Assembly (NCBI GenBank): GCA_964628065.1
Contig: CAZVLM010000002.1
Location: 18,993-68,064 of the forward strand
Direction: 5' to 3'
Length of the DNA stretch: 49,072 nt
DNA from: an uncultured Candidatus Saccharibacteria bacterium
Lineage (GTDB): Bacteria > Patescibacteriota > Minisyncoccia > Phycocordibacterales > UBA1006
Shown here: positions 906 through 39,907 of the stretch, one piece after another
How positions within the stretch are numbered: the stretch's first letter is position 1
Layout: each line of letters begins with the position of its first letter
Notes under the pieces: model-generated
Seen by the model: only the letters and a program-made list of their open reading frames with translations
What the model was told of the DNA's origin: nothing
Databases searched by the model: none
Position numbers and translations under genes: made by a program

Positions 906-1397
906 ATGAATTTCTCATTGAACGAACTGCCGGCGATTGCTACAGAAGTGATCAAGAAGGCAGAACTTAATAAGTCTTCCGAACATGCAACGCTGATTAC
1001 TTTTTCAGGAGATCTTGGGGCTGGAAAAACAACCTTAATACAGGAAATTGCAAAGCAGTTCGGTATTGCTGAAGACTTACAAAGCCCTACGTACGTTATA
1101 TATAAGAAGTATGAACTTCGCAAACCTCACCCCGCCGGCTTCGCCGAGCGCCCTCTCCTGCAAGGAGAGGGGTTCCGAACCGTGCCTTGGGAGTACTTAA
1201 TCCATGGCGATATGTACCGACTTGAATCAAGTAGTGAGGTAGAAACATTAGGATGGGACGACTTGCTTAGAAACCCGGAAAACATCCTTCTTATAGAGTG
1301 GCCTGAGAAAATCGCTGATAAAATCCCCAATTGGGCCTTAAAACTTAAAATAAGTCATATAAATCAAGGGGAATTGAGGGATATTGACTTTGGATAG
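906..1397 (+). CDS. tsaE: tRNA t6A37 biosynthesis ATPase TsaE, carrying an in-frame repeat insertion
   Basis: P-loop GDLGAGKTTL, SPTY...Y, H-x-D-x-YRL and LIEWPE blocks typical of TsaE/YjeE. TGCTAGGAT box lies 6 nt before the ATG. Confidence 0.85.
   Translation: MNFSLNELPAIATEVIKKAELNKSSEHATLITFSGDLGAGKTTLIQEIAKQFGIAEDLQSPTYVIYKKYELRKPHPAGFAERPLLQGEGFRTVPWEYLIHGDMYRLESSSEVETLGWDDLLRNPENILLIEWPEKIADKIPNWALKLKISHINQGELRDIDFG
1125..1180 (+). repeat. GC-rich palindromic element (type 1: CACCCC box + ccctctcc-tgcaa-ggagaggg hairpin), in frame inside tsaE
   Basis: cctcaccccgccggcttcgccgagcgccctctcctgcaaggagagggg read directly. Translated as PHPAGFAERPLLQGEGF, between the SPTY block and the HGDMYRL block. 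Confidence 0.85.
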
Positions 1398-1452
1398 GAA
1401 TTGTGCTATTATAGTAAAGGAAGTGATTTTTTAACCTTTAAAGTAAATAAGC

Positions 1453-1881
1453 ATGAAATTAGTAATCGCGTTTGCAAGAAATGTAGGCTCAGGACCTATG
1501 GTAATTCTAAAATTTGAAAAAGAAATTCCCAAAAAATCCGAGATTAGTAAAGAAGAAATGACAGAGCTGGTTGAAAATGTTGAAGCCAAAGATGCCGAGA
1601 CTACCTTACAAAAGGCGGTGGATAGCATGAAAAAGTATTTTGGTAACGATCTGCCAACGCCTTATCCCGATGGTCGCGAATTTGGAAAAAGAGTGCGCTA
1701 TTTGTTTCCTTACACTGCAGAGCACAAGCTAGACGGATTAGCTGCAACACTAAAGGTGTGGATGAACGAAGAAACCTCTGGCGGCGTTCATTATCCTGGC
1801 AATACCGAAATGGTGCCGGCCAATGAAAACGAAGTTGCCGTGGATGCGATTGCCGCTATAGCCACTGAAGAGCAAAATTAA
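1453..1881 (+). CDS. Hypothetical protein
   Basis: 142-aa ORF followed by hairpin aaaagcac..gtgctttt. No recognisable motif and the start is uncertain. Confidence 0.45.
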   Translation: MKLVIAFARNVGSGPMVILKFEKEIPKKSEISKEEMTELVENVEAKDAETTLQKAVDSMKKYFGNDLPTPYPDGREFGKRVRYLFPYTAEHKLDGLAATLKVWMNEETSGGVHYPGNTEMVPANENEVAVDAIAAIATEEQN

Positions 1882-1925
1882 ATAAAAAGCACTCGAGACT
1901 TGTTTCGGGTGCTTTTTACGTTGTC

Positions 1926-1934
1926 TGGTATAAT
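1926..1934 (+). promoter_or_regulatory. Extended -10 box TGGTATAAT, 6 nt upstream of the polA ATG (leaderless-type promoter)
   Basis: Sequence tggtataat-agtgat-ATG read directly. There is no purine-rich SD. Confidence 0.6.
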
Positions 1935-1940
1935 AGTGAT

Positions 1941-4361
1941 ATGAAAAAAACTGAGAAAAAAAGAATAGTGCTTTTGGATGCGCATGCGTTATTGCACCGT
2001 GCATATCATGCTCTGCCAGAGTTTACGAGCTCAAAAGGCATTCCAACTGGAGGATTATACGGATACGTATCAATGATCATTCGTATTATTTCAGAATGGA
2101 AACCCGACTATATTATTGCGTGTTACGACTTGCCCCAGAAAACATTCCGTCACGAAGCGTACGATGCGTACAAAGGACATCGCGCAAAAACAGATGAGGC
2201 GCTCGTTGCGCAAATCGAGTCATCACGATATGTTTGCGAAAAACTAGGAATTCCTATTTACGACATGCCGGGATTTGAAGCCGACGACATGCTTGGCACC
2301 ATTGTTGAGCAAACAAAAAAAGATAAAACCCTCGAGGTTCTTATTGCGACAGGGGATATGGACTCCCTGCAATTAGTGGATGGAAAAAAAGTTCGCGTGT
2401 TTACCTTAAAGAAAGGAATTAACGACACAGTTATTTACGACGAGGATGCAGTGCATGCACGATTTGGATTTGGTCCCGAATCGCTCCCTGACTTTAAGGG
2501 GCTTCGAGGAGATCCGTCTGATAACATTATCGGCGTTCCAGGTATTGGTGAAAAGACTGCAACGGAACTTATTTTGAAATTCGGAACCATAGAAAATATT
2601 TACAAAAACATTCACAAGGATAGAGAGCTACTTATCAAAGAGGGTGTAAAAGAGCGCATCGTAAAACTTCTTGAGGAGCACGAAGAGGGGGCACTGTTTT
2701 CAAAAACATTGGCAACTATTAGACGTGACGCGCCTATCACATTTACGCTTCCAGAGAAAACATGGAAGGAGTCTTGCGATCTATCTGTAGTAGAGCCGGT
2801 GCTTAAAGAGTTTGAGTTTAAGACATTGGTAATGAGATTGAAGGAGGTGTTGAATAGTGCTCAGTCTGGCGCAGCTTCCAAACCTCACCCCGCTTCGCAG
2901 AGCCTCGGCGACCCTCTCCTGCAAGGAGAGGGTGCCGAACCCGTTGTTGTCCCTCGCGAAACGCAACTTGCGTTCTGGCTCCTTAATTCCGAAATAACCA
3001 ATCCTACCGCCGATGATATTTTCATGTACACACGTACAGAAAATCTCGAAACAGCAAAAGAGTCTCTAGAAAAAGAAATTACAAAAAATGGATTAGATTT
3101 TGTTTACCGAGACATTGAGTTACCACTGATCCCGATCCTAAAAGGAATGCAAGAGCACGGCGTCCTCATTGATACAGGATTCCTTAAAGCACTTTCGGTA
3201 GATTTACACGGACAACTTGAAAAGATAGAAAAAGCTATTTATGCGCATGTTGGTCATGAGTTCAACGTAAACTCCCCAAAACAATTAGGTGAAGTACTCT
3301 TCGGAGAAATGCAGATCCATGCAAGCATCAAAGGATTCCGAGTAAAGAAAACTGCAAGTGGCACCTATTCCACAAAAGAGTCAGACCTTGAAAAACTTGC
3401 AGATGCACATCCGATCATCGCAGACATCTTTAAGTATCGCGAGCTTCAGAAATTGCTCTCTACTTATATAGATACGATGCCGACGCTTGCCGATGAAGGT
3501 TCGCGACTACATCCTGAGTTGCTTCAGATGGGAGCCGCAACAGGAAGGTTCTCTTGCCAGAATCCAAACATTCAAAACATTCCTATTCGATCAGAAGAAG
3601 GAAAGAAAATTCGAAATGCGTTTATTGCACCAAAAGAATACAGTCTCGTTTCTGCAGATTATTCCCAGATCGAGTTACGAAGCGCGGCGATTCTTTCGGG
3701 AGATCCAGTATTCATGGAAACGTTCAGTTCCGGAAAAGATGTTCATGCATCAGTTGCATCCAGAGTATTCCATGTTCCTGAAAACGAAGTAACGAGTGAT
3801 ATGCGACGAAAGTCAAAAGTCATCAACTTCGGAATCTTGTATGGAATGGGGGTGACGGCACTCCAGAAAAATCTGGGTACCAACCGGGCCGAAGCCCAGC
3901 AGTTCTATGATGAGTACTTCAAGCAATTGCCAAAACTCTCAGAGTATATGGACGATGTATTGGTACAAGCAAAGAAGTTGGGATACACAGAAACATTATT
4001 TGGAAGAAAACGATTATTCCCAGCATTAAAATCTTCCATTCCTTTCATTAAGGCAATGGCAGAACGAGCTGCAGGGAATGCGCCAATCCAAGGGACGACA
4101 GCTGATATTATTAAGCTAGCCATGATCCATGTGGATAAAGCTATCAAGGACGCAGGTCTTTCTGAAAGAGTACACATGATTATGCAAATCCATGACGAAC
4201 TGGTATTTGAGGTTGCTGATGAGGTGCTTGATAAGGCAAAAGACCTTATTAAGAAAACCATGGAGAGCGTCCTAGAAACGGTTCCTCTGAAGATTGAAAA
4301 TAAAATACCTATTGATGTTTCTATTTCCTCAGGAAAGACATGGGGAGAAGCAAAAGATTAA
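1941..4361 (+). CDS. polA: DNA polymerase I (5'-nuclease + polymerase domains; short, Taq-like middle region) with an in-frame repeat insertion
   Basis: N-terminal VLLDAHALLHRAYHA and GVPGIGEKTA (5'-3' exonuclease/H3TH). Family A polymerase motifs DYSQIELR, RRKSKVINFGILYGM and QIHDELVFE. Confidence 0.97.
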   Translation: MKKTEKKRIVLLDAHALLHRAYHALPEFTSSKGIPTGGLYGYVSMIIRIISEWKPDYIIACYDLPQKTFRHEAYDAYKGHRAKTDEALVAQIESSRYVCEKLGIPIYDMPGFEADDMLGTIVEQTKKDKTLEVLIATGDMDSLQLVDGKKVRVFTLKKGINDTVIYDEDAVHARFGFGPESLPDFKGLRGDPSDNIIGVPGIGEKTATELILKFGTIENIYKNIHKDRELLIKEGVKERIVKLLEEHEEGALFSKTLATIRRDAPITFTLPEKTWKESCDLSVVEPVLKEFEFKTLVMRLKEVLNSAQSGAASKPHPASQSLGDPLLQGEGAEPVVVPRETQLAFWLLNSEITNPTADDIFMYTRTENLETAKESLEKEITKNGLDFVYRDIELPLIPILKGMQEHGVLIDTGFLKALSVDLHGQLEKIEKAIYAHVGHEFNVNSPKQLGEVLFGEMQIHASIKGFRVKKTASGTYSTKESDLEKLADAHPIIADIFKYRELQKLLSTYIDTMPTLADEGSRLHPELLQMGAATGRFSCQNPNIQNIPIRSEEGKKIRNAFIAPKEYSLVSADYSQIELRSAAILSGDPVFMETFSSGKDVHASVASRVFHVPENEVTSDMRRKSKVINFGILYGMGVTALQKNLGTNRAEAQQFYDEYFKQLPKLSEYMDDVLVQAKKLGYTETLFGRKRLFPALKSSIPFIKAMAERAAGNAPIQGTTADIIKLAMIHVDKAIKDAGLSERVHMIMQIHDELVFEVADEVLDKAKDLIKKTMESVLETVPLKIENKIPIDVSISSGKTWGEAKD
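2883..2942 (+). repeat. GC-rich palindromic element (type 1), in frame inside polA
   Basis: cctcaccccgcttcgcagagcctcggcgaccctctcctgcaaggagagggtgccgaac. Translated as KPHPASQSLGDPLLQGEGAEP, in the linker between the 5'-nuclease and polymerase domains. Confidence 0.85.
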
Positions 4362-4390
4362 GTAAATAAGCCATCAAGTGGCTTATTTAC
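4362..4390. terminator. Hairpin gtaaataagcca-tcaag-tggcttatttac downstream of polA
   Basis: 12-bp perfect inverted repeat immediately after the polA stop codon. Confidence 0.7.
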
Positions 4391-4420
4391 TTGAAAAAAT
4401 TTTAGGTATACACTATCCCT

Positions 4421-4897: not shown

Positions 4898-5514
4898 TTT
4901 CAGTATTCATTGGAAAAACCTCACCCCTAACCCCTCTCCTGCAAGGAGAGGGGAACCGCGAACGGGTAGATGTACTTACTGCAAACCTTCAAAATGTTTT
5001 TGATGATATTCAAACACCAAGTCTTTTTGGGGAAAAGAAAACATTCGTGCTTATGAATGTGATGGAAGATGATTCGATAAAAAAAGAAGTTCTCGAACGA
5101 TTGGCTGAACTTTCTGAAGCTCCTCATGATGTAGCGATTGTTGTCGACAGCATGCTTGCGGCAGACGTAAAGAAATTTGAAAAAGTAGGGACGGTGCACA
5201 AGGCCTTAGAAAAGGAAAAGAAAGCAGAAGTGTTTAATCCGTTCGGACTTGCGAACGCATTTGCGACAGGAGATAAGAAAAAGACATGGCTCGCATTTCA
5301 AGAAGTGCTAGCACATGAAGACGAAATGGAAAAGACGCACGGAATGATTTGGTGGAAACTGAAAGATATGATGACAAAGAAGTCTTCTGTTCCGAAAGAA
5401 AAACTTGATGCTATGGCGCGAAGACTTGTTTCTATTTATCACGAATCGCGATTGGGTGGATTGGGAATGAAAGAGCGATTGGAAGAATTTTTCCTGACGC
5501 TTGATAAGAAATAA
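4888..5514 (+). CDS. Putative DNA polymerase III delta subunit (short HolA-like), N-terminal repeat insertion
   Basis: SLFGEKKTFVL block and a helical C-terminal half (WLAFQEVL...IWWKL) resemble HolA. Overlaps the upstream stop (ATGTGGATATGA). The assignment is tentative. Confidence 0.45.
   Translation: MDMISVFIGKTSPLTPLLQGEGNRERVDVLTANLQNVFDDIQTPSLFGEKKTFVLMNVMEDDSIKKEVLERLAELSEAPHDVAIVVDSMLAADVKKFEKVGTVHKALEKEKKAEVFNPFGLANAFATGDKKKTWLAFQEVLAHEDEMEKTHGMIWWKLKDMMTKKSSVPKEKLDAMARRLVSIYHESRLGGLGMKERLEEFFLTLDKK
4919..4960 (+). repeat. GC-rich palindromic element (type 1, short form), in frame near the N-terminus of the holA-like ORF
   Basis: cctcacccctaacccctctcctgcaaggagaggggaacc, translated as TSPLTPLLQGEGN. 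Confidence 0.8.
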
Positions 5515-6541: not shown

Positions 6542-6620
6542 ACAAGCGATTATAGCATAAAGCTCGAACCTTACTTGAGGTAACGAAAAAATCCCTTATT
6601 TCTAAGGAAATTTTTCAATG

Positions 6621-6693: not shown

Positions 6694-6779
6694 GTGCTCT
6701 GCGAAGCTTTAGCGAAGCGGGGCGGCCCCATTACTAAAACTTGCGTTTTACGAAACGAACTGTACTATACACAATAATT

Positions 6780-7271: not shown

Positions 7272-7287
7272 TTTTTAAGTAATCTCT

Positions 7288-7848: not shown

Positions 7849-7888
7849 GGGCTAAGTATAGCATGACTCACGCCTTAGTCTGGAAAGA

Positions 7889-8150
7889 CGCACCCCGCCG
7901 GCTTTGCCGAACACACCCCGCGAGCTTCGCTCGTCGACCCTCTCTAAAAGAGAGGGTAGGCTCCGTCGAGACTCTTTCATTCATTAAAATTCCGATCATC
8001 TCTTAGAGGCTATCAACAATCTACAAAACCACTTGTCTAGACGAAGCAAAGCTTTGCATAAGTGTTTCACCTTACCCTCTCTTTTAGAGAGGGTCGCTCG
8101 CCGAAGGCGGCGGGGTGTGTTTGAGAGGGGACCTCGGCGAAGCCGAAAGT
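7889..8150. repeat. Composite MITE-like element: two inverted GC-rich type-2 arms (hairpin ccctctct-aaaa-gagaggg) flanking an AT-rich core of about 100 bp
   Basis: Left arm aacacaccccgcgagcttcgctcgtcgaccctctctaaaagagagggta (7910..7957). The right arm is its near reverse complement, taccctctcttttagagagggtcgctcgccgaaggcggcggggtgtgtt (8073..8121). The core is homologous to the core at 23484..23577. Confidence 0.75.
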
Positions 8151-8195
8151 GCGCGTTGGTGCGTGAAGTCTTGCAAAAAATCAAACTTATGCTAC

Positions 8196-11974: not shown

Positions 11975-13380
11975 AAAAAGTGATCAATGCCATTTTCCCT
12001 TACACGTTTTACCTGCATATTTTCCAGCTGGAACGATATGATATTTTGCGCTTCCTCAAATGGCTTAAAAGCAATTTCTTCACCCGATCGAACCAGAACA
12101 AGAAACCACTGGTTGTTACGCAGAAAATAAAAATGATAGAAGTACTGTCTTGGGTTTGGTTTATCGTGTTGGTAGTAGTGGGTGTTTTGATTTCAAAGTG
12201 GCTAGGAATAATTGTTGCCGCTATTTTGATCATTCAGCCATATCTCCTCATTATCCTTTCAACGATCTCATTAAAACCTTATGAGGTTTGGAATCGGGCG
12301 CGAACTATTCGGGTTACGAGGAATAAAATAAAATCCCTCAAACATACTCAAATAGTGGGCATTGCGGGATCATACGGAAAAACCTCAGTAAAAGATGTTT
12401 TGTTTCACTTGCTTAAAAAAGATTATAAGGTTTTAAAAACTCCTCTCAGCTACAATACTATCTTTGGTATTGCTCAGGTTGTGGACTTGGAGCTGGATGA
12501 TTCCTATGATTATTTCTTGTGCGAACTCGGTGAATTCCAAAAGGGAGACATTACTGAAATGTGCGAAATGGTATTTCCAAAATACGGGATTCTTACAGGT
12601 ATCAACGACCAGCATTTGGAGCGGTTTAAGAATATCAAAAATACAATCGCGACAATTTTTGAGCTTGCAGACTTCTTGAAGGTGCAACAGCAAAAAACCA
12701 TTGTTAATGGTTTGAATCAATATATTTCTGAAGAGGTCCAGAGAAGGGGTTCCCATAATTTTGTCTTATACAGTACGGACGACAGCGAGCTTTTGGTAAG
12801 TGATGTTAAGTTTTCTGACAAAGGAACCTCTTTTGTTTTGAAATACAACGGAAAAATCTATCCAATAGAAACCCCGCTTCTGGGATACGCTCACCTTAAT
12901 AATATCCTAGGAGCAGCTACGCTTGCCGTTCAGCTTGGAGCATCTCTTGATAAGCTGGAAAAACGGATTGAAACACTGCCTCATGTCCCGCACCGTTTTG
13001 CCCAGAAGGTTTTGCCAAACGGTCTTTTGCTCGTTGATAATTCCTACAGCAGTAATTCAGATAGTTTCAAAGAGTCTCTTAATATCCTAAAAGGTCTTCC
13101 AAGAAAGAATAAGATATTGGTTACGCCGGGAATGGTCGAACTTGGAGACTCGAGCGATTCAATTCATCAAGAGCTTGGAAAAATGGCGAATAGTGTCTGT
13201 TCCTATGTAGTCTTAGTTGGTAAAAGCGATCGAACAAAAGCCCTCGCTTCTGGTATTGATCAGGACAAGGTGGTTTGGATGGACGACATTCGCCAGCTGT
13301 GGCAGACAGTTGAAAAATTAGGAATTCAGGCTAACGAAACAGTCGTTCTCCTTGAGAACGACTTGCCCGATAACTATTAG
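11971..13380 (+). CDS. murF: Mur ligase, probable UDP-MurNAc-tripeptide--D-Ala-D-Ala ligase (MurF) with an N-terminal transmembrane segment pair
   Basis: ATP-binding GIAGSYGKTSVKD, a Mur ligase central/C-terminal layout, and a convergent neighbour ddl. Residues about 55-100 are strongly hydrophobic. Confidence 0.7.
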   Translation: MKKVINAIFPYTFYLHIFQLERYDILRFLKWLKSNFFTRSNQNKKPLVVTQKIKMIEVLSWVWFIVLVVVGVLISKWLGIIVAAILIIQPYLLIILSTISLKPYEVWNRARTIRVTRNKIKSLKHTQIVGIAGSYGKTSVKDVLFHLLKKDYKVLKTPLSYNTIFGIAQVVDLELDDSYDYFLCELGEFQKGDITEMCEMVFPKYGILTGINDQHLERFKNIKNTIATIFELADFLKVQQQKTIVNGLNQYISEEVQRRGSHNFVLYSTDDSELLVSDVKFSDKGTSFVLKYNGKIYPIETPLLGYAHLNNILGAATLAVQLGASLDKLEKRIETLPHVPHRFAQKVLPNGLLLVDNSYSSNSDSFKESLNILKGLPRKNKILVTPGMVELGDSSDSIHQELGKMANSVCSYVVLVGKSDRTKALASGIDQDKVVWMDDIRQLWQTVEKLGIQANETVVLLENDLPDNY

Positions 13381-14631: not shown

Positions 14632-14690
14632 TTATTTGGGACGTTTTGCATACTACTATAAAAAACACCCCTTTTCAAGGCAAGTAAAAA

Positions 14691-14737
14691 CCTCTCCTTG
14701 CAGGAGAGGTCGGACGGCGAAGTCGCCGGGTGAGGTC
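14691..14737 (-). repeat. GC-rich palindromic element (type 1, reverse orientation), immediately 3' of the 14739..15215 gene
   Basis: cctctccttgcaggagaggtcggacggcgaagtcgccgggtgaggt. Its reverse complement matches the CACCC-box + ctctcctgcaaggagagg layout. Confidence 0.8.
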
Positions 14738-14738
14738 T

Positions 14739-15215
14739 CTACACTCCAATCGCTTCCGCAAGAATATCAATAATTGACTGCTTAGTTTCTTTTTCTTCGA
14801 TATATCTAAGGAGATAGGCTCGAAGCTCGTTTGGCGAAGTTGTTTCCGAAAGGGTAATGATTCGCTGGGGCATAACGGGTCGGCCGGTGACAATCATAAG
14901 GCGATTGTGGCCATGGTGATCCTGGTACATCCAAAATGATTTAAGGGTTTCATAAGTATACAAATCCTTGTTCATCTTAATCCCTCGTTCACTTAATTCA
15001 ACGTGCACCGGATGAGGTCTATCGTTTGCATAAAAACCAAGAAGGAGACCCCCAAGAATGAGGAGTACCGCAAGCAAATAGTTGTGCGCGATAATCGCAA
15101 GAACGCATCCTGTCACAATTGCAATACCAAGTGCCCAGTACCAGTCTGTTGATTTTTCCTTATGGGCAAATTCAACCGCATCCCACTCATATTTTTTTGT
15201 CTGCTCATGAATCAT
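14739..15215 (-). CDS. Hypothetical membrane protein (two TM helices + soluble C-terminal domain)
   Basis: ORF with the hydrophobic pair WYWALGIAIVTGCVLAII / LLAVLLILGGLLLGFY. Start set to ATG 15215 (TATACT-attaat-ATG). Confidence 0.5.
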   Translation of the reverse strand: MIHEQTKKYEWDAVEFAHKEKSTDWYWALGIAIVTGCVLAIIAHNYLLAVLLILGGLLLGFYANDRPHPVHVELSERGIKMNKDLYTYETLKSFWMYQDHHGHNRLMIVTGRPVMPQRIITLSETTSPNELRAYLLRYIEEKETKQSIIDILAEAIGV

Positions 15216-15277
15216 ATTAATAGTATACAAAATAAAGACCCGCAATGCGAGTCTTTATTTTCATATTTAAAAAATGA

Positions 15278-15724
15278 TTACTTTTCAGCAGATTGCACCC
15301 GAATAAGGTTTGCAAGAATAGTTCCTTCTGGGTCTGGAGTGCCGATAACTACAATAAAGTTACCAACTTGAAGATCTTCAGGTAAAAGTTCTTTTTGGTC
15401 TGATCGAATAAGAGTATCAGGTCTTACAAAAATTGTTTTCTCCGTTCGGTCCTGATCAGCGACAATGATTCGGGGGAGCGAGATACCAATAATAGGTCCA
15501 GCGGTTCCGTGCGCTGCAGGAAGTTGTCGGTTCAGAGGAAGTCTTTGTGCTTGCTCGTGCATGAACGCGCTTTTTCTCGTTCCTACAAGCATGCCTGCCT
15601 GAAAAATAATAATAGAAACAAGAAGCATGCCGATGCCGTACATCGCCATGCTTGCCTTGTTTGATTCAGCAGCTCCGCGAAGGAATGATTGAAGTTGTTC
15701 GTGCCAGTTTTTTTTGTGATCCAT
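15278..15724 (-). CDS. Hypothetical membrane-anchored protein
   Basis: ORF with a single TM (MAMYGIGMLLVSIIIFQAGMLVG). Part of the sigma-factor operon by position. Confidence 0.5.
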   Translation of the reverse strand: MDHKKNWHEQLQSFLRGAAESNKASMAMYGIGMLLVSIIIFQAGMLVGTRKSAFMHEQAQRLPLNRQLPAAHGTAGPIIGISLPRIIVADQDRTEKTIFVRPDTLIRSDQKELLPEDLQVGNFIVVIGTPDPEGTILANLIRVQSAEK

Positions 15725-15740
15725 AAGTATAGATTAGGTA

Positions 15741-15786
15741 CTCCCCCTGCGAAGGGGGAGTCGCTCGGCGAAGCCGGCGGAGGGGG
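15741..15786 (-). repeat. GC-rich palindromic element (type 3 hairpin ctccccctgcgaagggggag + box), intergenic
   Basis: The reverse complement of 15761..15786 (ccccctccgccggcttcgccgagcga) shares the 18-mer cgccggcttcgccgagcg with the tsaE copy. Confidence 0.8.
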
Positions 15787-16182
15787 TTAGATAGTTGATA
15801 ACTTCTGCACAGCTCGTAATGAGTTTCGCGCCGACCAGGCGAGAACGAGCAGGATAAGCAGTACGACAGTAAGACTCATAACCGGAATAGCTTCTACAAG
15901 GGTTACTGCAAACTGCTTCCAATAACTTGTGACCGCTCCAGGATCAGAGAAGCCAATCGATAGATAATGATAGAATCCTGATTGTCCAATTTGGTGCACC
16001 AACCCGATGGTGGCAGGAACAATTGCAATAACCGATAATGTTGCAATGACGCCGTATCCCCAAAAAGTTATTTGACGAGAACGATTTTCGCGTAAAACAA
16101 TCACACGCACAATATCCGTCGAGAGATTTTCCCGCGGACAGCAATTGATAGAACACAGTGCTTTATTAAGTGGTTTCGCCAT
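15787..16182 (-). CDS. Membrane protein, possible anti-sigma factor
   Basis: Directly downstream of the ECF sigma gene. Cys-rich N-terminus (CSINCC) followed by TM helices. Assigned by position only. Confidence 0.35.
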   Translation of the reverse strand: MAKPLNKALCSINCCPRENLSTDIVRVIVLRENRSRQITFWGYGVIATLSVIAIVPATIGLVHQIGQSGFYHYLSIGFSDPGAVTSYWKQFAVTLVEAIPVMSLTVVLLILLVLAWSARNSLRAVQKLSTI

Positions 16183-17441: not shown

Positions 17442-17873
17442 TTACATTCTTATAGAATCAATATCTTTTACTGTAATCCAAGCACAGGCATTTCCGAAAC
17501 CTTTTTTATTAATAGAGAAGGGCTTTATAGATTTCGGATTTTTAAGGAAGACAAGGATGGCGTACTGTTTTGATTGGGTCCAAGTGAGGGCCTTGGCGGG
17601 ATTTGCGAAGCAAATCCCGCCGTTTCCTCCATACTTTTTGATAATACCTTTCAGTTCTTTTTGTGAGTAGTGCTCACACTGAAGAACATTTGTAACTTCA
17701 GCTGAAGCCGTTACACTACTTCCTGAATCTTTGAAATAGATTGTATCGCCTATAGAAATAGCGTTCCAAGGCGCGCGTCGCGTCTGGTACCACCTAGATT
17801 CAATAGTTTTCTCACCTGAAAGGATTTTTGGAATAAGTTTCCAAGACTTATTCATAATTGCGACATGGTGCAT
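17442..17873 (-). CDS. ASCH domain protein
   Basis: SWKLIPKILSGEKTIESRW... is an ASCH/PUA-like N-terminal pattern. TGGTAAAAT lies 6 nt upstream of the ATG. Confidence 0.6.
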   Translation of the reverse strand: MHHVAIMNKSWKLIPKILSGEKTIESRWYQTRRAPWNAISIGDTIYFKDSGSSVTASAEVTNVLQCEHYSQKELKGIIKKYGGNGGICFANPAKALTWTQSKQYAILVFLKNPKSIKPFSINKKGFGNACAWITVKDIDSIRM

Positions 17874-19517: not shown

Positions 19518-19928
19518 ATGAACCCAATCACCATACAAACCCTTATCAAAGCTGATATCCAAAAAGTCTGGGACTACTGGAACGAGCCTGCTCATATTAC
19601 GCAGTGGTGCCACGCCTCAGATGATTGGGAATGTCCAAAATCAACAAATGATCTGAAAGTTGGTGGAAGTTTTGTTTCTACTATGGCAGCCAAAGATGGT
19701 TCGTTCTCATTTGATTTTGGTGGAACGTATACGGAGATTGTTCCTCTTGAAAAAATTGCCTATGTTATGGAAGACGGAAGAAAAGTAGGGGTTTTGTTTA
19801 AGCATGAAGGAGACAGTGTCCGCGTCGTTGAAACATTTGATCCAGAAACGCAGAATCCTAAAGAAATGCAACGAGCAGGGTGGCAGTCTATTTTGGATAA
19901 TTTTAAGGAGTATGTGGAAAATAATTAA
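19518..19928 (+). CDS. SRPBCC-superfamily (AHSA1/START-like) protein
   Basis: ITIQTLIKADIQKVWDYWNEPAHITQW...FDFGGTYTEIVPLEKIAY is typical of the Aha1-like SRPBCC family. TGTTATACT lies 8 nt before the ATG. Confidence 0.75.
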   Translation: MNPITIQTLIKADIQKVWDYWNEPAHITQWCHASDDWECPKSTNDLKVGGSFVSTMAAKDGSFSFDFGGTYTEIVPLEKIAYVMEDGRKVGVLFKHEGDSVRVVETFDPETQNPKEMQRAGWQSILDNFKEYVENN

Positions 19929-19957
19929 GTAAAAAACCACCAATGGTGGTTTTTTAC
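19929..19957. terminator. Hairpin gtaaaaaaccacca-at-ggtggttttttac (bidirectional)
   Basis: Perfect inverted repeat between convergent genes. Confidence 0.7.
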
Positions 19958-19970
19958 TTAGAGCAAATAA

Positions 19971-22101: not shown

Positions 22102-22141
22102 CCCAAACAAAAAACACGATTAATCGTGTTTTTTGTTTGGG
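22102..22141. terminator. Long perfect hairpin cccaaacaaaaaacacga-ttaa-tcgtgttttttgtttggg
   Basis: 18-bp perfect stem read directly, located between tRNA-Ser and the 22067 gene start. Confidence 0.65.
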
Positions 22142-22709: not shown

Positions 22710-23471
22710 ATGCAGACGAGCGCACTACAACTCCAGCAACGTTTAAGGAAGGCGAGAAATAGTACTCGTGCTAAAAATTGCGCACGATTTTTCAAGACGG
22801 GCAAAGGCGAGTACGGATATGGTGATAAGTTTCTAGGTATTACGGTTCCTAACACACGCTTGATCCTTAAACCTTTTAAAGATCTTCCATTTGGAGAAAT
22901 TGAAAAACTCCTTAAGAGTCCATGGCATGAAGAACGATTAGCAGGAGCGATCATTTTGTCTCACCATGCAAAAACCTCAAAGCTTCCCAAAGACAGAAAG
23001 CGCATTGCATCTTTCTATGTTAAGTATGCCGAACGATTCAACAACTGGGACTTAGTAGATGTTTCTGCCGAGTACTGTTTAGGATTATGTTTAGCTGATT
23101 TAAGCAGGAAGAAACAAGAAGTCTACTTGAAAAAACTTGTTGTCTCGAAAAATCTTTGGAAAAGAAGAATGGCGATGGTTGCTACGTTTCACTTTTCAAG
23201 GAACAAATTATCAGATCTTGCATTGTGGGTTGCAGAACAACTTATGAATGATGATCATGACTTGATTCATAAAGCGTCTGGTTGGATGCTTCGCGAATAT
23301 GGGAAGCGTGCAAGTGAAGCAGGGCTTGTTACGTTTTTAAAGAAGCATTATCAAGTCATGCCGCGCACCATGTTACGATATGCGATCGAACGATTGCATC
23401 CGGAGACGAAGACGTATTTTATGAAACGCACCAACACACCCCGCCGGCCTACGGCCGAGCGCCCTCTCTAA
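22710..23471 (+). CDS. DNA alkylation repair protein (AlkD-like HEAT-repeat family); C-terminus and stop supplied by a repeat element
   Basis: RFFKTGKGEYGYGDKFLGITVP, LWKRRMAMVATFHF and IHKASGWMLREYGKR are blocks as in AlkD-type proteins. Confidence 0.75.
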   Translation: MQTSALQLQQRLRKARNSTRAKNCARFFKTGKGEYGYGDKFLGITVPNTRLILKPFKDLPFGEIEKLLKSPWHEERLAGAIILSHHAKTSKLPKDRKRIASFYVKYAERFNNWDLVDVSAEYCLGLCLADLSRKKQEVYLKKLVVSKNLWKRRMAMVATFHFSRNKLSDLALWVAEQLMNDDHDLIHKASGWMLREYGKRASEAGLVTFLKKHYQVMPRTMLRYAIERLHPETKTYFMKRTNTPRRPTAERPL

Positions 23472-23628
23472 AAGAGAGGGCAGGCTCCGACGAGCGTAGT
23501 AGGTTATGTAGATTTCTATGAATCTCCAAGAGGTTAGCAAAACACTCCTGAATCACTTTATCTCAACGAAGCAAACCCTCTCTTTTAGAGAGGGTCGACG
23601 AGCGAAGCTCGCGGGGTGTGTTGGGTAA
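23434..23628. repeat. Composite MITE-like element (type-2 inverted arms + AT-rich core), second copy
   Basis: Left arm caacacaccccgccggcctacggccgagcgccctctctaaaagagagggcaggctccg. Right arm gaagcaaaccctctcttttagagagggtcgacgagcgaagctcgcggggtgtgttg. The core shares atctc..agagg.ta.caa and acgaagcaaa with 7958..8072. Confidence 0.75.
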
Positions 23629-23630
23629 TA

Positions 23631-23639
23631 TGCTATACT
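23631..23639 (+). promoter_or_regulatory. Extended -10 box TGCTATACT, 7 nt upstream of the ruvX ATG
   Basis: tgctatact-ccactct-ATG read directly. Confidence 0.55.
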
Positions 23640-24060: not shown

Positions 24061-24222
24061 CACCCCTCAGTCTGCCTGCAGCAGACAGCTCCCCTTCGTA
24101 GGGGAGCATCCCTCCGTTTCGACCAGGCTCACGTAAACACGCTTTGTCATCCTAGTTTAAATGAAGCAAACCCTCTCTTTTAGAGAGGGTCGACGAGCGA
24201 AGCTCGCGGGGTGGGTTTGACC
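24061..24222. repeat. Two further repeat units: a type-3 unit (24061..24110) and a type-2 arm (24165..24222)
   Basis: cacccctcagtctgcctgcagcagacagctccccttcgtaggggagc nearly equals the reverse complement of 39859..39905. gaagcaaaccctctcttttagagagggtcgacgagcgaagctcgcggggtg is identical over about 50 nt to 23570..23620. Confidence 0.8.
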
Positions 24223-31321: not shown

Positions 31322-31382
31322 CCTTAAACAACCTTTCCAATAAAGGTTGTTTTTCATATATGCACCTAGTATACTTAGCTAT

Positions 31383-32417
31383 ATGAATAAATATTTTTGG
31401 ATGGGAGCTGGCATACTAATTATTACGGGTGTATTTCTTGTCTGTACAAATAATAAGTACATGCAGGCTTCGGTAATGAATGCATTAAAAATTAATACCA
31501 CAGATGCACAAGTCTTTTTAATGGGAGGGGATACGATTGTTGCTGGTCAAGCAAATATTTGCCACAACGATGTCTACTCATCTCGTGACATGATTAATTG
31601 GAAATTAATATCTCCTGATAATCAGAACCCTGGTACCACTAAGTGGAGCCCAAGAGGGGGACAATCGACGCTTTATTTTAATAATAAACTTTGGGTTATT
31701 GGAGGACAGGATTGCCAAGGAGACCCATCGAATGAGGTCTGGTCTTCTTCTGATGGTAATAGTTGGAAACTTGAAGGAGTAATAGGAACAAATTTCTCAG
31801 ATTTTCGAAGTCAACAAACGGCGGTAGTTTTCAAAAACAGAATGTGGGTAATCGGAGGACATACAGGTGTGAGCATGTGGAATGATGTATATTCTTCTTC
31901 TGATGGTGTGACATGGAGACTGGAAACAGGTAATGCTCCTTGGGCTCAGAGATACGGACACTTGTCATTTGTCTATAACGATAAAATATGGGTTATGGGA
32001 GGGGCTAATAGTGTTGGTGGCGTGTTTGCAAATGATGTATGGTTTTCAGGAGATGGAAAAAATTGGACACAGGCAACGGCTCACGCGGTATGGTCTCCAC
32101 GATTTGGATTAATGGGAGGTGTTTATAATGGGAAAATGTATGTCTTTGGCGGTTCTGACCTCTCCGGTACTTTTAATGATGTCTATTCTTCCGCTGATGG
32201 GGTGACATGGACTCCTGTTGCTCAGAACCAGTGGCAGGGACGACCTCTTGGAGTATCTGTAGTATTAAATAAGAAGTTGTACCTACTGGGCGGGATAAAA
32301 AACAACTATCTCAGTTTGAACGATGTTTGGAGCTATGATGGATCCATTTGGAAAAATGTGACTAATAATCCTGCATGGAATGGCCGATTTATTCACAGTG
32401 CAGTAGTAGCTCAATAG
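31383..32417 (+). CDS. Membrane-anchored beta-propeller protein (Kelch-like blades with Asp-box S-x-D-G-x-x-W)
   Basis: Five to six repeats of ...LWVIGG... + DV(W/Y)SS(S/A)DG(x)xW(x)L. N-terminal TM anchor. TATACT lies 6 nt before the ATG. Confidence 0.7.
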   Translation: MNKYFWMGAGILIITGVFLVCTNNKYMQASVMNALKINTTDAQVFLMGGDTIVAGQANICHNDVYSSRDMINWKLISPDNQNPGTTKWSPRGGQSTLYFNNKLWVIGGQDCQGDPSNEVWSSSDGNSWKLEGVIGTNFSDFRSQQTAVVFKNRMWVIGGHTGVSMWNDVYSSSDGVTWRLETGNAPWAQRYGHLSFVYNDKIWVMGGANSVGGVFANDVWFSGDGKNWTQATAHAVWSPRFGLMGGVYNGKMYVFGGSDLSGTFNDVYSSADGVTWTPVAQNQWQGRPLGVSVVLNKKLYLLGGIKNNYLSLNDVWSYDGSIWKNVTNNPAWNGRFIHSAVVAQ

Positions 32418-33997: not shown

Positions 33998-34022
33998 AAA
34001 ACCCGCGACACGCTCGGGGTTT

Positions 34023-35501: not shown

Positions 35502-35552
35502 GGTCCTAGTATAGTTATTTTAAGCGGTTTGTCATTAGGGCGTGGTAGAACA

Positions 35553-35600
35553 AAAACAAAATAAAAAAGAGGGAATGATCCCTCTTTTTTATTTTGTTTT
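35553..35600. terminator. 22-bp perfect hairpin aaaacaaaataaaaaagaggga-atga-tccctcttttttattttgtttt
   Basis: Read directly, between divergent 3' and 5' gene ends. Confidence 0.7.
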
Positions 35601-35612
35601 AATACTCAGTGC

Positions 35613-36053: not shown

Positions 36054-36160
36054 AACTGGTTATTTAATTGGTTAGAAAATATCTTTTATATAATAGCACA
36101 TAAAATATTATTAGTCAAAACATTGTATGGCACGGAAATAAAAGGTACTATCTACGCTAT

Positions 36161-36976
36161 ATGAAAGAGTCTGGAAATTATGCAGAAAAATTAGTTAAGA
36201 AAACAGAAGAAGCAAAAGAGAAATTGATGTCCGGAGGAGTCGATTCTTTGCAGGCTCACTTTGAACTGCAGAATATTCAGCAAGAGGCTTATGGAAGCGA
36301 AGAACTTCGCAAGGAAGCAGAAGAAGAAAACAAAGAGAGATTTCCAGAAAAAATCGCGATCAAGAAAGGACTAGATTTTGTATTTGAGAAGAATCCTAAA
36401 TTGTCTCAGATTGGCAGTATTGAACAATATTCTGAATATTTAGACACTATTTTCCCTGATAGTAAATTCAAAGACGTTGTCTATCACGGCACCAGAGAAC
36501 AAATCCCTTTTGAAAAGTTTCATACAGAGAAAGTGGTCACGGCGAGAAATTTTGGAAAAGGAGTTTATTTTTCGCCAACTCTTGATAAGCCGCGAGGTTA
36601 CACCTATGACAGTGGGATGGTATTATCTGCGGTAGTAAATGTCACTAAGCCTTTCATTACAGAATCAAAATGGAAAGAATGGTTTCGAATAGGGGTACCA
36701 GTTCCTAATGGTTTGGGAGTATCAGAATATACCAATGGATGCGATACACTTTTTAATTATGATTATTTAGACAGGGATACGTTCAAGCAGATTAATGAGT
36801 ATATGGTTGAATACGGGGGAGAAAAAGATGAATTAGGATTTCCTGTATACCAACTAAGTATACGTGCTCATCCTGAACTTAAAGAAGTAGTAGTAGAAAA
36901 TCCTGATAGAATTCACATTCTTGGATCAGAAGCAGACCTCAAAGGATTTAAGGAATTTGTAGAAAGTCAAAAATAA
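36161..36976 (+). CDS. Putative ADP-ribosyltransferase-fold protein (PARP/ART-PolyVal-like H-Y-E pattern) with a coiled-coil N-terminus
   Basis: VVYHGTREQIPFEKF ... GKGVYFSPT ... EVVVENPDRIHILGS resemble the H / Y / acidic strands of PARP-like ARTs. Judged by eye only. Confidence 0.4.
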   Translation: MKESGNYAEKLVKKTEEAKEKLMSGGVDSLQAHFELQNIQQEAYGSEELRKEAEEENKERFPEKIAIKKGLDFVFEKNPKLSQIGSIEQYSEYLDTIFPDSKFKDVVYHGTREQIPFEKFHTEKVVTARNFGKGVYFSPTLDKPRGYTYDSGMVLSAVVNVTKPFITESKWKEWFRIGVPVPNGLGVSEYTNGCDTLFNYDYLDRDTFKQINEYMVEYGGEKDELGFPVYQLSIRAHPELKEVVVENPDRIHILGSEADLKGFKEFVESQK

Positions 36977-36980
36977 GATT

Positions 36981-37532
36981 ATGGAATCAAATTATAAAAA
37001 AGCCATATTTGCAGGCGGGTGCTTCTGGTGCACAGAGCATGATTTAAGAGCGGTTCCTGGCGTTATTAATGCAATTTCGGGGTATTCGGGTGGTGATACG
37101 TCAAATCCGACATACCAAGATCACGGCAATCACCGCGAAGCAGTAGAAATTACTTATGATCCATCTCTTGTAAGTTTTAAAAAACTGTGCCAGTTTTTCC
37201 TTGATCACATTGATCCGACTGATGCAGGCGGACAGTTTTACGATCGCGGGGAATCATATAAAACAGCGATTTATTATAAGAATGATGAAGAGAAGGGAAT
37301 TGCCGAAAGCTTAATAAAGGAGTTGGATGACAGTGGCTTATTTGCACCACTTAAAGTCGCTGTAGAAGTTCTTCCTGAAAAAGCATTTTACAAAGCGGAA
37401 GATTATCACCAGCAGTATGCCGAGAAAAATGAAATGCATTACAACAGCTACGCCAAAGGCTCCGGCCGCGTACAGTTCGTAGCGAATACGTGTGCCGTGA
37501 GGGAGGATAAGAAGATTCAGTGGAAGGAATAA
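36981..37532 (+). CDS. msrA: Peptide methionine (S)-sulfoxide reductase MsrA
   Basis: AIFAGGCFWCTEH active site, GYSGG, HREAV and DYHQQY blocks. Confidence 0.93.
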   Translation: MESNYKKAIFAGGCFWCTEHDLRAVPGVINAISGYSGGDTSNPTYQDHGNHREAVEITYDPSLVSFKKLCQFFLDHIDPTDAGGQFYDRGESYKTAIYYKNDEEKGIAESLIKELDDSGLFAPLKVAVEVLPEKAFYKAEDYHQQYAEKNEMHYNSYAKGSGRVQFVANTCAVREDKKIQWKE

Positions 37533-37566
37533 GTTTGACAAATATTATAAATAGCGGTATTCTTGT

Positions 37567-37938
37567 ATGGATACTGTTATTTTGATTAACTTAAAAGTGA
37601 ATAAAATGAAACCAAAAGAATTTGTCGCATGGATAGTTGGCTTTGTTATTGATTCAGGAAAAACCTCATTAACACATGATGAGATTCTTGAAATACAGGC
37701 CAGGTTAAAATCTGTTCTCGAAGCGGATGAGTGCCTAAAGCTTGCTTACTCAGATGTATATTTAGCCCGGGAAGAAAGGCGCGGCATCTTAGAATATATT
37801 CTTGAGCCCTCAATAAGTGTTTGTTTTTGGGTTAACCACTGGCTTGAAATACTTCCATCGGTAATTCATAGAAATGATGTACCAGAAAAAAGTTTCGAAA
37901 CTCTTGCACAGAGTATTAGAACTCAAATGGAAAGATGA
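37567..37938 (+). CDS. Hypothetical protein
   Basis: ORF only. TTGACA at 37535..37540 lies upstream. Start uncertain (ATG 37567 or the MKPKEF start). Confidence 0.4.
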   Translation: MDTVILINLKVNKMKPKEFVAWIVGFVIDSGKTSLTHDEILEIQARLKSVLEADECLKLAYSDVYLAREERRGILEYILEPSISVCFWVNHWLEILPSVIHRNDVPEKSFETLAQSIRTQMER

Positions 37939-38039
37939 TCAGATTTTTCGTATGCTCAATGAAGCCTTCCAGTTCCATGGCAAGGCTTCATTTTTTTGGA
38001 AATAAGCCAGTGATAAGATTTTATGATACAATTTTTATC

Positions 38040-38381
38040 ATGAGTATTATATCTTGGTTGATTCTTATAGGTTCCATTCTCGCCATCTCAATTGGCGATG
38101 TATTTATCAAAAAAGCAGGCGCAAGCGTGCAGTCATTTGGAGCAATATTTAAGAACCCGTGGTTTATTGCTGCTGCGCTGCTTTACATCGTTCAGGTCGT
38201 AGGTTTCGGTTACCTTTTCTTTTCAGGAGCTAAGCTAAGTTGGATCGCTGTCGTTCAAACAGTTCTGTATGCGCTGGTGGTAATTGGTTCAGGCGTGCTT
38301 ATCTTCCATGGGTCGATCAGTCTGGCTCAGGGAATTGGAATTGCGCTTGCAGTCGTTGGGCTAATTCTTGTTAATCTTTAA
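38040..38381 (+). CDS. Small 4-TM transporter-like protein (SMR/EamA half-size, ArnE-like)
   Basis: 113-aa hydrophobic protein with ISIGDVFIKKAG in TM1. The track N-terminal extension was dropped. Confidence 0.5.
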   Translation: MSIISWLILIGSILAISIGDVFIKKAGASVQSFGAIFKNPWFIAAALLYIVQVVGFGYLFFSGAKLSWIAVVQTVLYALVVIGSGVLIFHGSISLAQGIGIALAVVGLILVNL

Positions 38382-38384
38382 TCT

Positions 38385-39758
38385 ATGAAACAAAACAACT
38401 CTCCCTGGCTTACGCAATTAAATCACGAGCGACCTATTAACGTCATTGATAAGGATGTTGAAACAGATGTCGTTATTGTCGGTGGGGGAATTGCGGGGGT
38501 GGTGACGCTTTATTTCCTTCTTAAGCATACGGATAAGAAAGTCGTATTGCTCGAAGGTCATAGATTGGGTCATGGTGCAACGGGTCACAATGCTGGACAG
38601 GTGGTAGCTGAGTTTGAGCGCCCAATGGTTCACCTTGCTCGCGAGCACGGTATCAAAAAAGCTGTAGCAGGACTCGCTATGGTAGAAGAAGCATGGGACC
38701 TGCTTTCTCAGATTTTCGAGGAAACGGAAATAAAAATCCCGTTTAAGGAATTCATTGGCTACAGTGGGTACACCGATCAGAAGCCGCTCCTTGAAGAGCT
38801 TGAAACAGAGCTCATCAGATTTCAGCATGGGTTGATGCATTTCCCGACACTTGTTTCTCGTGAGTCAGAATGGATGAAAACCATTCCGTCCAAGTTTCAT
38901 CCGATTTGTACAGAAGTAGAAGGATCCCTTATTACGGAATTGCTTGAACTCAAAAAAGAAGGATACAAAGCGGTAATCCCTAATAAGGCAGCAACACTTA
39001 ACAGCGCGCTCTTTTCAGAGCGATTGGCGCTTTGGTGTCTTGAAAAATATCCAGACAGGGTAAAGATTTTTGAGAAGAGTTTTGTGCAGGGTGTTGAGCT
39101 TAATGCGGACAAGCCTCGTTTGTTTACTGATCATTTTGTAATTACTTGCGATGAAATCGTTCTTTGTACCAATGGATTTGAAAACTTCTATATTCATGAC
39201 AAGCAGGGACTTGATATCGATACAAAGTTTCATCATCTGATCCGAGGTGTTGTTGGATATATGACGGGCTACCTTACTAATAATGAATTGCCACCGATGG
39301 CGAATCGCTATTACGAAGAAGGACTAAAAGGAGAGGGAGAGTTCCAGAAGGAGCGACTTTCTGATATTTACTTTTACATTACACAAAGAAAATTTGGAGA
39401 TGAAGAAAGTAATCAGCACCTTCTTGCAGTTGGAGGCCCTGAAATAAGTTTGGTAGAACGAGAAATTTATTTTAATGAGTTTGATGTTCCTGAAAAATTC
39501 CGTGATGATTCGGTTGCTTTTGCAGAAAAATATTTCACAACTGATGCATTTGATCAGAAGTTTTTCTGGCATGGCCTAATGGGGTACACACGCACGGGTG
39601 TGCGAGTGGTGGGACGAGAGCCTTTGGATGGGCGACTGCTTTATAACTTGGGTTGTAACGGAGTGGGTATTATGCCAAGTATCATGGGCGGACTTAAAAT
39701 AGCGAGACATATTAACGGGGAAGAGGTAGAGGAGACAATTTTCGATCCTGTAAGATAA
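38385..39758 (+). CDS. FAD-dependent oxidoreductase (DAO family)
   Basis: Dinucleotide-binding VVIVGGGIAGV...LLE and the C-terminal GCNGVGIM typical of the DAO family. Confidence 0.8.
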   Translation: MKQNNSPWLTQLNHERPINVIDKDVETDVVIVGGGIAGVVTLYFLLKHTDKKVVLLEGHRLGHGATGHNAGQVVAEFERPMVHLAREHGIKKAVAGLAMVEEAWDLLSQIFEETEIKIPFKEFIGYSGYTDQKPLLEELETELIRFQHGLMHFPTLVSRESEWMKTIPSKFHPICTEVEGSLITELLELKKEGYKAVIPNKAATLNSALFSERLALWCLEKYPDRVKIFEKSFVQGVELNADKPRLFTDHFVITCDEIVLCTNGFENFYIHDKQGLDIDTKFHHLIRGVVGYMTGYLTNNELPPMANRYYEEGLKGEGEFQKERLSDIYFYITQRKFGDEESNQHLLAVGGPEISLVEREIYFNEFDVPEKFRDDSVAFAEKYFTTDAFDQKFFWHGLMGYTRTGVRVVGREPLDGRLLYNLGCNGVGIMPSIMGGLKIARHINGEEVEETIFDPVR

Positions 39759-39766
39759 GTTACGAT

Positions 39767-39907
39767 GCTCCCCGGATTCACCCTTCCGCCCTTCGGGCAC
39801 CTCCCCTTCGCAGGGGAGGAAACTCCTTCGAAAGTTTCTCACAAAGGTAGAGTTAGATGCTCCCCTGCGAAGGGGAGCTGTCTTGCGCAGCAAGACTGAG
39901 GGGTGAG
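39767..39907. repeat. Cluster of type-3 GC-rich palindromic units (ctccccttcgcaggggag; ctcccctgcgaaggggag + gtcttgcgcagcaagac + gaggggtg box)
   Basis: Read directly. The right unit is the near reverse complement of 24061..24107. A small hairpin gaaact-ccttcgaa-agtttc lies in between. Confidence 0.8.

Follow-up and report, generated by a model that had tools for sequence, protein, structure and literature searches.

GC-rich repeats with potential intrastrand triplex symmetry in spacers and genes of a Patescibacteria genome

Introduction

What are the GC-rich hairpin repeats scattered over a 49,072-nucleotide stretch from an uncultured Candidatus Saccharibacteria bacterium (assembly GCA_964628065.1, contig CAZVLM010000002.1, positions 18,993 to 68,064; hereafter, the window)? 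A first-pass annotation had listed 13 copies with a constant CACCCC box, a GC-rich segment of 15–25 nt and a perfect hairpin, and had likened them to repetitive extragenic palindromes and bacterial interspersed mosaic elements (REP/BIME) and to Rickettsia palindromic elements (RPEs). We found that the box is a mirror image of one hairpin arm and changes together with it. Each copy is probably a DNA-level structural repeat of the BoxC/PIT/TM_ECO kind, which could fold into an intrastrand triple helix.

The window contains 41% G+C, so that the AT-richness ascribed to the genome is only moderate, and its cumulative GC skew climbs steadily. Homologues of its PolA assign the organism to the Patescibacteria (candidate phyla radiation, CPR), the named neighbours including Parcubacteria, Nomurabacteria and Minisyncoccia. 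A literature search on palindromic repeats of the CPR found no paper. For comparison we used the related genomes L001, L003, L004, L127 and L129 (70–82% PolA identity), and also L128.

Results

Census of the elements

GC-rich hairpin repeats were present at all 13 coordinates listed earlier. The hairpins are perfect and 7–10 bp long. The three types that had been described are real: CCCTCTCC-TGCAA-GGAGAGGG (type 1), CCCTCTCT-AAA-AGAGAGGG (type 2) and CTCCCCT-TCGC-AGGGGAG (type 3). Two variants occur once each, ACCTCTCCT at 14690 and ACTCCCCCT at 15740. A finder written for this architecture (a pyrimidine and a purine arm separated by one loop, then a second loop of at most 30 nt and the mirrored third strand) returned exactly these 13 elements in the window and none in 30 Markov-1 simulated windows. 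A relaxed finder for degenerate extra copies gave chance-level matches in the window and nothing convincing, and partial extra copies flank the ruvA/rpsT pair (Table 1). The elements are 36–52 nt long, have a G+C content of 66%, and make up 1.3% of the window.

Mirror symmetry and three-way co-variation

Read from the box, each copy consists of a pyrimidine-rich box, a small hairpin (hp1) and a larger hairpin (hp2). In this orientation the 5' arm of hp2 contains only C and T, and the 3' arm only A and G. The arms measure 7–10 nt, the loops 3–4 nt, and all 13 copies are free of Watson–Crick mismatches. We then scored the flanks, within 45 nt, of every GC-rich homopurine/homopyrimidine hairpin in the window. 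An antiparallel third block was found on one flank in 13 of 13 cases, and the opposite flank gave background values. The block was perfect in 11 copies and had one mismatch in the other two. G of the third block stands opposite G of the purine arm, and A or T stands opposite A.

The purine arm and the third block occurred in the combinations GGAGAGGGG / GGGGTGAGG, AGAGAGGG / GGGTGTGT, AGGGGAG / GAGGGGT, AGGGGGAG / GAGGGGGT and AGGAGAGG / GGTGAGGT in the window, and, for example, as AGAGGAGG / GGAGGAGT and AGGAGGAG / GAGGTGGT in the relatives. Over 19 distinct purine arms from the window and the relatives, the fraction of allowed triplets was 0.97 with an arm's own third block and 0.61 with the blocks swapped; the relatives' elements in this comparison had passed a third-strand filter beforehand, which was not applied to the 13 of the window. 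Read as direct repeats, arm and box fitted to only 0.46. The box accordingly appears as CACCCC, CACACCCC, CCCCCTCC or CTCACCC..., in step with the hairpin arm. The constant CACCCC box of the first-pass annotation therefore did not hold, and it is absent from the copies at 14691, 15741 and 39767. Templated copying cannot yield this mirror relation of box and arm, and recognition by a protein that binds double-stranded DNA would not explain it.

Opposite A, the third block carried T 47 times and A 24 times. These counts fit a reverse-Hoogsteen purine motif on the G-rich strand. They exclude a triplex of the pyrimidine type, be it on the C-rich strand or in RNA, a candidate that was rejected on account of A opposite A at most positions. 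An alternative fold with Watson–Crick pairing between box and purine arm was also rejected, having 2 mismatches in 9 when aligned by hand.

The mini-hairpin connector

Loop 2, which lies between the purine arm and the third block, is 12–21 nt long and folds as hp1 in 12 of the 13 copies; element 4918 has TTA at this place. The GC-rich segment noted earlier is thus present in 12 copies and is itself a hairpin, but the copy annotated at 4919 has no middle hairpin. In DNA folds calculated with ViennaRNA, allowing Watson–Crick pairs only, hp1 directly adjoins hp2 on one side and the third block on the other (z-scores from −3.4 to −5.5), and it therefore serves to connect them compactly.

The loop of hp1, on the G-rich strand, reads C-GAA-G, C-GTA-G or C-GCA-G in 11 of the 12 window copies, and T-GCA-G in the remaining one. 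C-GNA-G was found on the G-rich strand of most relatives' elements as well, and GNA lay on the other strand in a single element of a relative. For the heptamer GCGAAGC we counted 14 occurrences in the window, where 5.4 are expected; seven lie within elements. The DNA mini-hairpin motif is defined by a C-G pair closing a GNA (or GNNA) loop on one particular strand, and GCGNAGC and GCGNNAGC form hyperstable mini-hairpins (PMC13037366, PMC3201870). The mini-hairpin and purine-motif signatures reside on the same strand, which points to single-stranded G-rich DNA as the folded species.

GCGAAGC cores were also observed apart from the triplex-type elements. Perfect GC-rich 12-bp hairpins with this core, GGCGGGATTTGC-GAA-GCAAATCCCGCC, are located inside open reading frames (ORFs) at 17595-17621 of the window and at 9181-9207 of L004. 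They have no third strand and may represent a second, solo mini-hairpin repeat family. The tRNA-Lys/SpoU methylase spacer (6696-6740) has two tandem GCGAAGC motifs plus a G/C run (GCTCTGCGAAGCTTTAGCGAAGCGGGGCGGCCCC), a GC-rich island outside the triplex family.

Membership in the BoxC/PIT/TM_ECO family

BoxC, the PIT element and TM_ECO are the same motif, CCCTCNCCC-N3-6-GGGNGAGGG-N3-GGGNGAGGG (Holder et al. 2015, PMC4666352). TM_ECO, which in E. coli reads CCCTCTCCC-TGT-GGGAGAGGG-TTA/CCG-GGGTGAGGG, is a potential class II purine-motif intrastrand triplex, and its isolated single strand gives a stable triplex in vitro; G/C-rich triplex motifs have also been described in cyanobacteria (PMC4666352). 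All 13 window elements have their third block on the 3' side of the purine arm and show no more than one mismatch in it. Loop 2 was limited to 3 nt for TM_ECO and 1–6 nt for ITxF in the published definitions (PMC4666352), and to 0–10 nt by Hoyne et al. 2000, as cited there. Searches limited to 6 or 10 nt would miss the long-loop form.

An exact scan of the 21-mer CCCTCTCCTGCAAGGAGAGGG against the GTDB genomes yielded at least 120 genome stretches, where we estimate about 0.3 by chance. Among the matches listed, the hosts were Cyanobacteria, Chloroflexota, Melainabacteria, Planctomycetes, Bacteroidota, Gammaproteobacteria, Armatimonadota and CPR, most stretches had ACCTCACCCC or ACCTCTCCCC 3–7 nt upstream of the hairpin, and 92 of 127 occurrences had a perfect third strand on the proper side. 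Long-loop forms also appeared in Melainabacteria, Spirochaetota and a CPR relative. A metagenome scan for the L001-type hairpin returned only two unrelated stretches.

Table 1. Triplex-type elements and partial copies in the window (Y arm, pyrimidine arm; R arm, purine arm; triplets, allowed of total)
Position	Strand	Feature	Structure	Triplets	Context
1124..1171	-	complete element	Y arm CCCTCTCCT, loop TGC, R arm AGGAGAGGG, loop 2 as 18-nt mini-hairpin with core GCGAAGC, third strand GGGTGAGGT	9/9	in-frame in TsaE, encodes KPHPAGFAERPLLQGEG
2882..2933	-	complete element	loop 2 of 21 nt	9/9	PolA, in linker that joins 5'-3' exonuclease domain to polymerase domain, encodes KPHPASQSLGDPLLQGEG
4918..4953	-	canonical short-loop element	CCCCTCTCCT-TGC-AGGAGAGGGG-TTA-GGGGTGAGGT	10/10	in-frame near HolA-like N-terminus, encodes SPLTPLLQGEG
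7889..7957	-	type-2 element	complete part 7911-7957	8/8	left half of inverted pair, divergent ruvA/rpsT spacer
7889-7910		partial extra copy	third strand and mini-hairpin		ahead of 7911-7957 element
8074..8150	+	type-2 element	complete part 8074-8120	8/8	right half of ruvA/rpsT pair
8121-8150		truncated copy	purine arm and mini-hairpin only		after 8074-8120
14690..14736	+	complete element	R arm AGGAGAGG, third strand GGTGAGGT	8/8	between stop of ORF 14739-15245(-) and tRNA-Arg
15740..15787	+	complete element	R arm AGGGGGAG, third strand GAGGGGGT	8/8	occupies spacer of ORFs 15278-15724(-) and 15787-16182(-)
23434..23481	-	complete type-2 element	mini-hairpin loop GTA	8/8	left half of pair; last codons of DNA-alkylation-repair ORF 22710-23471, TAA stop within hairpin loop
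23575..23621	+	complete type-2 element		8/8	right half of pair with 23434..23481; end 12 nt ahead of -10 box of leaderless ruvX
24062..24107	-	complete type-3 element	R arm AGGGGAG, third strand GAGGGGT	7/7	start 1 nt past ruvX stop; left half of mixed type 3/type 2 pair
24170..24216	+	type-2 element	third strand GGGTGGGT, one mismatch	7/8	97% identical to 23565-23622; end 11 nt ahead of -10 box of gene 24242
39780..39819	-	type-3 element	12-nt loop 2 GCCC-GAA-GGGC, third strand GGAAGGGT, one mismatch	7/8	left half of pair, after stop of DAO-family gene
39859..39904	+	type-3 element	loop 2 with C-GCA-G mini-hairpin	7/7	right half of pair; end 9 nt ahead of -10 box of pterin dehydratase gene

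Coding copies and comparison with relatives

The copies lie in both orientations and in spacers as well as ORFs, which bears out the earlier description of a dispersed GC-rich palindromic family. Four copies are in ORFs: those in TsaE, the PolA linker and the HolA-like protein are in-frame, and the fourth forms the 3' end of the DNA-alkylation-repair gene. Five of the six reading frames of the GC-rich element sequence are open. The true start of the HolA-like gene is probably ATG 4894. TsaE of L001 and L003 has no insert, the PolA insert is likewise absent there, and the HolA-like protein has a 7–9 codon insertion relative to both. The Pol I linker is hypervariable, and its homologues carry other element-derived peptides in other frames and orientations. 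In L129, inverted pairs of a short-loop copy and an hp1 copy were found inside both TsaE and Pol I.

The ruvA/rpsT spacer harbours elements in five of six genomes, each time with genome-specific arms. No element was detected in 22 syntenic kb of L128. Orthologous loci thus differ in presence or absence, the relatives having no inserts or different ones. The family is not confined to the window, as the same architecture was seen in L001, L003, L004, L127 and L129, with a common plan and stem sequences specific to each genome.

Two further observations concern coding sequences. The 115-aa ORF 39576-39923 (-) has no Pfam match, runs antisense to the 3' end of the DAO-family gene (38385-39758) and passes through both the 39780 and 39859 elements; it is almost certainly spurious and held open by the GC-rich repeats. 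Several relatives have one more hot spot of insertion, close to the C-terminus of PolA (alignment columns ~826-850; e.g., ...SLSFREGRSAEWRTG...), and in L004 it coincides with a degenerate triplex element (12363-12411). The PolA of the window has no such insert.

Spacer copies and transcription

The other nine copies occupy spacers, five just past stop codons and five just ahead of promoters. This arrangement could suit sites that work in RNA, such as terminators, insulators, processing sites or stabilisers, where intergenic pairs, once transcribed, would fold and thereby terminate mRNAs or shield them. The hairpins are stable, and inverted pairs between co-directional genes could make long RNA stems. 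Such a role does not account for the copies within the TsaE, PolA and HolA-like ORFs, nor for the relatives' coding copies, which occur in either sense (10 C-sense vs. 7 G-sense). An intrinsic terminator combines a GC-rich stem with a T/U tract; no such tract follows the elements, and the genome's evident terminators are of a different A-tract/stem/T-tract kind. Purine-motif triplexes do not form in RNA, and PIT elements showed neither promoter nor terminator activity in E. coli (PMC4666352). C-GNA-G is a DNA motif, and the RNA sense of most transcribed copies has the complement C-UUC-G. The Rfam search of the window returned tRNAs alone and no family matching the elements, and L128 does without elements in its syntenic region. 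Taken together, we give an RNA-level function very little credence.

Several narrower candidates were also discarded. All nine transcribed copies of the window have the C-rich strand in sense, but this orientation bias fails in the relatives, with the 10 to 7 distribution given above. The elements do not serve as −35 boxes because their spacing to the −10 box is only 5–7 nt. A role as anti-Shine–Dalgarno or Shine–Dalgarno decoy was dropped: none of the 34 gene starts listed has a GGAG, GAGG or AGGA tetramer in the last ~20 nt, about 15 look leaderless, and the mirror rule fits the box better.

The transcription signals themselves can be described briefly. At ~15 of the 34 starts, a −10-like box (TAnnnT, often TGnTAnnnT) ends 6–8 nt ahead of the start codon, e.g., at 1941, 6541(-), 7848(-), 8209, 11237, 14534(-), 23647, 24242, 35501(-), 39926 and 43438. 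The usual pattern in this genome seems to be transcription from extended −10 promoters into leaderless mRNAs. Perfect hairpins of 13–22 bp, flanked by an A-tract and, on the opposite side, a T-tract, are located at 23-56, 761-793, 4360-4392, 19926-19960, 22102-22141, 35553-35600 and 40985-41016. They are probably bidirectional intrinsic terminators, a class distinct from the GC-rich elements.

Transposase-borne repeats as an alternative

Four inverted pairs fill spacers of the window, and the 24062/24170 pair combines type 3 with type 2. Two of them belong to composite units (7880-8130 and 23425-23635), whose spacers are similar over 127 nt at 76%. Doublets of this sort recall REPINs or terminal inverted repeats, and the elements could be mobile elements of the REP/REPIN or miniature inverted-repeat transposable element (MITE) type. 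A transposase acting in trans and encoded elsewhere in the genome (a RAYT/IS200-like HUH enzyme or another) would then recognise the hairpins and use the box for cleavage or as a guide, and the triplex symmetry would be incidental. Dispersal in both orientations, the differences at orthologous sites and the near-identity of copies within the genome (97%), while the relatives' sequences are genome-specific, agree with this origin, and structures specific to single-stranded DNA (ssDNA) would suit HUH enzymes. However, a Pfam scan of the ~60 ORFs in the window detected no RAYT, Y1/HUH domain or other transposase, and E. coli members of the family showed no association with mobile elements (PMC4666352). 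No transposase-recognition model predicts a mirror repeat with A/T degeneracy opposite A over 19 arm variants.

The resemblance to the individual classes was also partial. Like REP/BIME and REPINs, the elements are short GC-rich palindromes with a conserved segment 5' of the hairpin and form inverted doublets. Their anatomy departs from the REP/BIME likeness proposed in the first-pass annotation: the invariant GTAG-type 5' tetranucleotide was not found, the segment co-varies with the arm as its mirror repeat, and the copies are not exclusively extragenic. MITE-like features of the window comprise inverted pairs with partly similar spacers; neither a recognisable target-site duplication nor an insertion sequence was observed. 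The parallel with RPEs held for the colonisation of coding regions and for presence/absence. Both are palindromic repeats that sit in-frame in housekeeping genes at tolerated sites, add a peptide there, and leave relatives without an insert. The parallel failed for the unit itself. RPEs measure ~100–150 bp and are not known to have triplex symmetry, in contrast to the 36–52 nt of the present elements, which lie in different frames and orientations in homologues; this distinction follows the RPE description. Overall, we consider a transposase-borne origin improbable.

Other genes of the window

A cyclodipeptide synthase gene (E 7e-26) directly upstream of an S-adenosylmethionine methyltransferase gene was observed at 41921-43410, a small natural-product pair that is unexpected in Patescibacteria. 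The Kelch-repeat protein at 31347-32417 contains five diverged tandem repeats of ~150 nt (31565-32219). Proteins with DUF3800 and ART-PolyVal (ADP-ribosyltransferase) domains are encoded at 116-781 and 36161-36976, respectively; these domains are frequent in phage or defence contexts.

Discussion

With the above results in hand, we can propose how a repeat of the BoxC/PIT/TM_ECO kind would behave in this genome. The G-rich strand presents, in order, the pyrimidine arm, a loop of 3–4 nt, the purine arm, the second loop and the mirror G-rich third block. Once this strand becomes single-stranded during replication, repair or DNA uptake or in a transcription bubble, the arms would form the Watson–Crick hairpin. 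The third block would then fold back antiparallel into the major groove of the hairpin through reverse-Hoogsteen G.G-C, A.A-T and T.A-T triplets, the class II purine motif. In this lineage, the flush C-GNA-G mini-hairpin of 12–21 nt would return the third block to the foot of the main hairpin. The triplex would form in vivo and would be the property under selection. Whole units appear to have been copied to new sites, often as inverted pairs, probably via ssDNA and perhaps without a dedicated transposase, and copies would persist where they are tolerated, namely in short spacers and in variable loops and linkers of proteins. Rather than regulating genes, they would mainly make their surroundings unstable, as replication stalls or slips there.

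Several points weigh against this proposal. No copying mechanism, target-site duplication or empty-site boundary could be defined, the relatives being too diverged (~80% amino-acid identity). Relative to the replication direction deduced from GC skew, the elements are oriented without bias (6 vs. 7), which speaks against any function tied to the lagging-strand template in particular. The triplex itself is predicted from sequence symmetry, and the search for a transposase covered the 49-kb window. Only one of the 13 copies (4918) conforms to the strict TM_ECO/ITxF definition, with a loop 2 of 3–6 nt. In E. coli, the double-stranded motif gave no triplex signal, and in vivo dimethyl sulfate footprinting was negative (PMC4666352).

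A bolder combination of claims can be put forward only tentatively, and we think it rather unlikely to hold as a whole. In this version, the co-variation over 19 arms and the same-strand mini-hairpin would be the first comparative evidence of in vivo selection on intrastrand DNA triplexes, and the module would be an autonomous ssDNA-active element that copies itself without a dedicated transposase (e.g., by fork stalling, template switching or repair) and colonises essential genes of minimal CPR genomes.

The BoxC/PIT/TM motifs have been known for ~25 years, and we are aware of no established function or mode of spreading for them. The concerted change of all three strands over many diverged variants and the strand-specific mini-hairpin are evolutionary evidence that the three-stranded fold matters, and this comparative evidence for conservation of the design is the main value of the present set. 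Existing triplex finders do not see the long-loop form, so the family has probably been under-counted. The in-frame copies of Pol I, TsaE and the HolA-like protein show that such repeats shape proteins as well, even in genomes thought to be streamlined. For annotation, the elements account for recurrent peptides of the 'PLLQGEG / PSPARRG' type and for the spurious ORF described above.

Comparison with known systems places the elements as follows. Fungal mitochondrial double-hairpin elements and GC clusters are GC-rich two-hairpin repeats in AT-richer compact genomes, coding regions included. They share the scattered two-hairpin plan, but their hosts are unrelated, and we know of no triplex-type third block described for them; this comparison was made by description. 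The DNA mini-hairpins d(GCGNAGC) and d(GCGNNAGC) of the phage G4 and RSF1010 ssiA ssDNA priming sites (PMC13037366) have the same core as hp1, which reads GCGAAGC, CCGAAGG, CCGTAGG or GCGCAGC on the G-rich strand. In contrast to those sites, hp1 is a connector inside a triplex motif, and replication orientation shows no bias.

The closest match is with BoxC/PIT/TM_ECO, through the pyrimidine arm, short loop, purine arm and mirror G-rich third block. The blocks are nearly identical, E. coli GGGAGAGGG / GGGTGAGGG corresponding to GGAGAGGGG / GGGGTGAGG here with the same base composition, and window copy 4918 follows the same plan with the loop TTA of E. coli type A. Both families occur in both orientations, form inverted pairs of unlike subtypes, show no linked transposase (here among the ~60 window ORFs) and vary between relatives. 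The E. coli motif is strictly intergenic (K-12) and frequently forms inverted pairs of two subtypes, and local instability has been reported around it (PMC4666352). The short-loop/hp1 pairs of L129 match this pairing, and the partial copies beside the ruvA/rpsT pair echo the instability. The differences lie in loop 2, which measures 12–21 nt with a mini-hairpin in 12 of 13 copies and so exceeds the published limits of 6 or 10 nt, in the predominance of T, not A, opposite A, in the four of 13 copies inside ORFs, and in a Patescibacteria host with ~41% G+C and genome-specific stems. The elements are thus of the known BoxC/PIT kind; what is new is that they occur in a CPR host, insert into coding sequence and carry a mini-hairpin in a long second loop.

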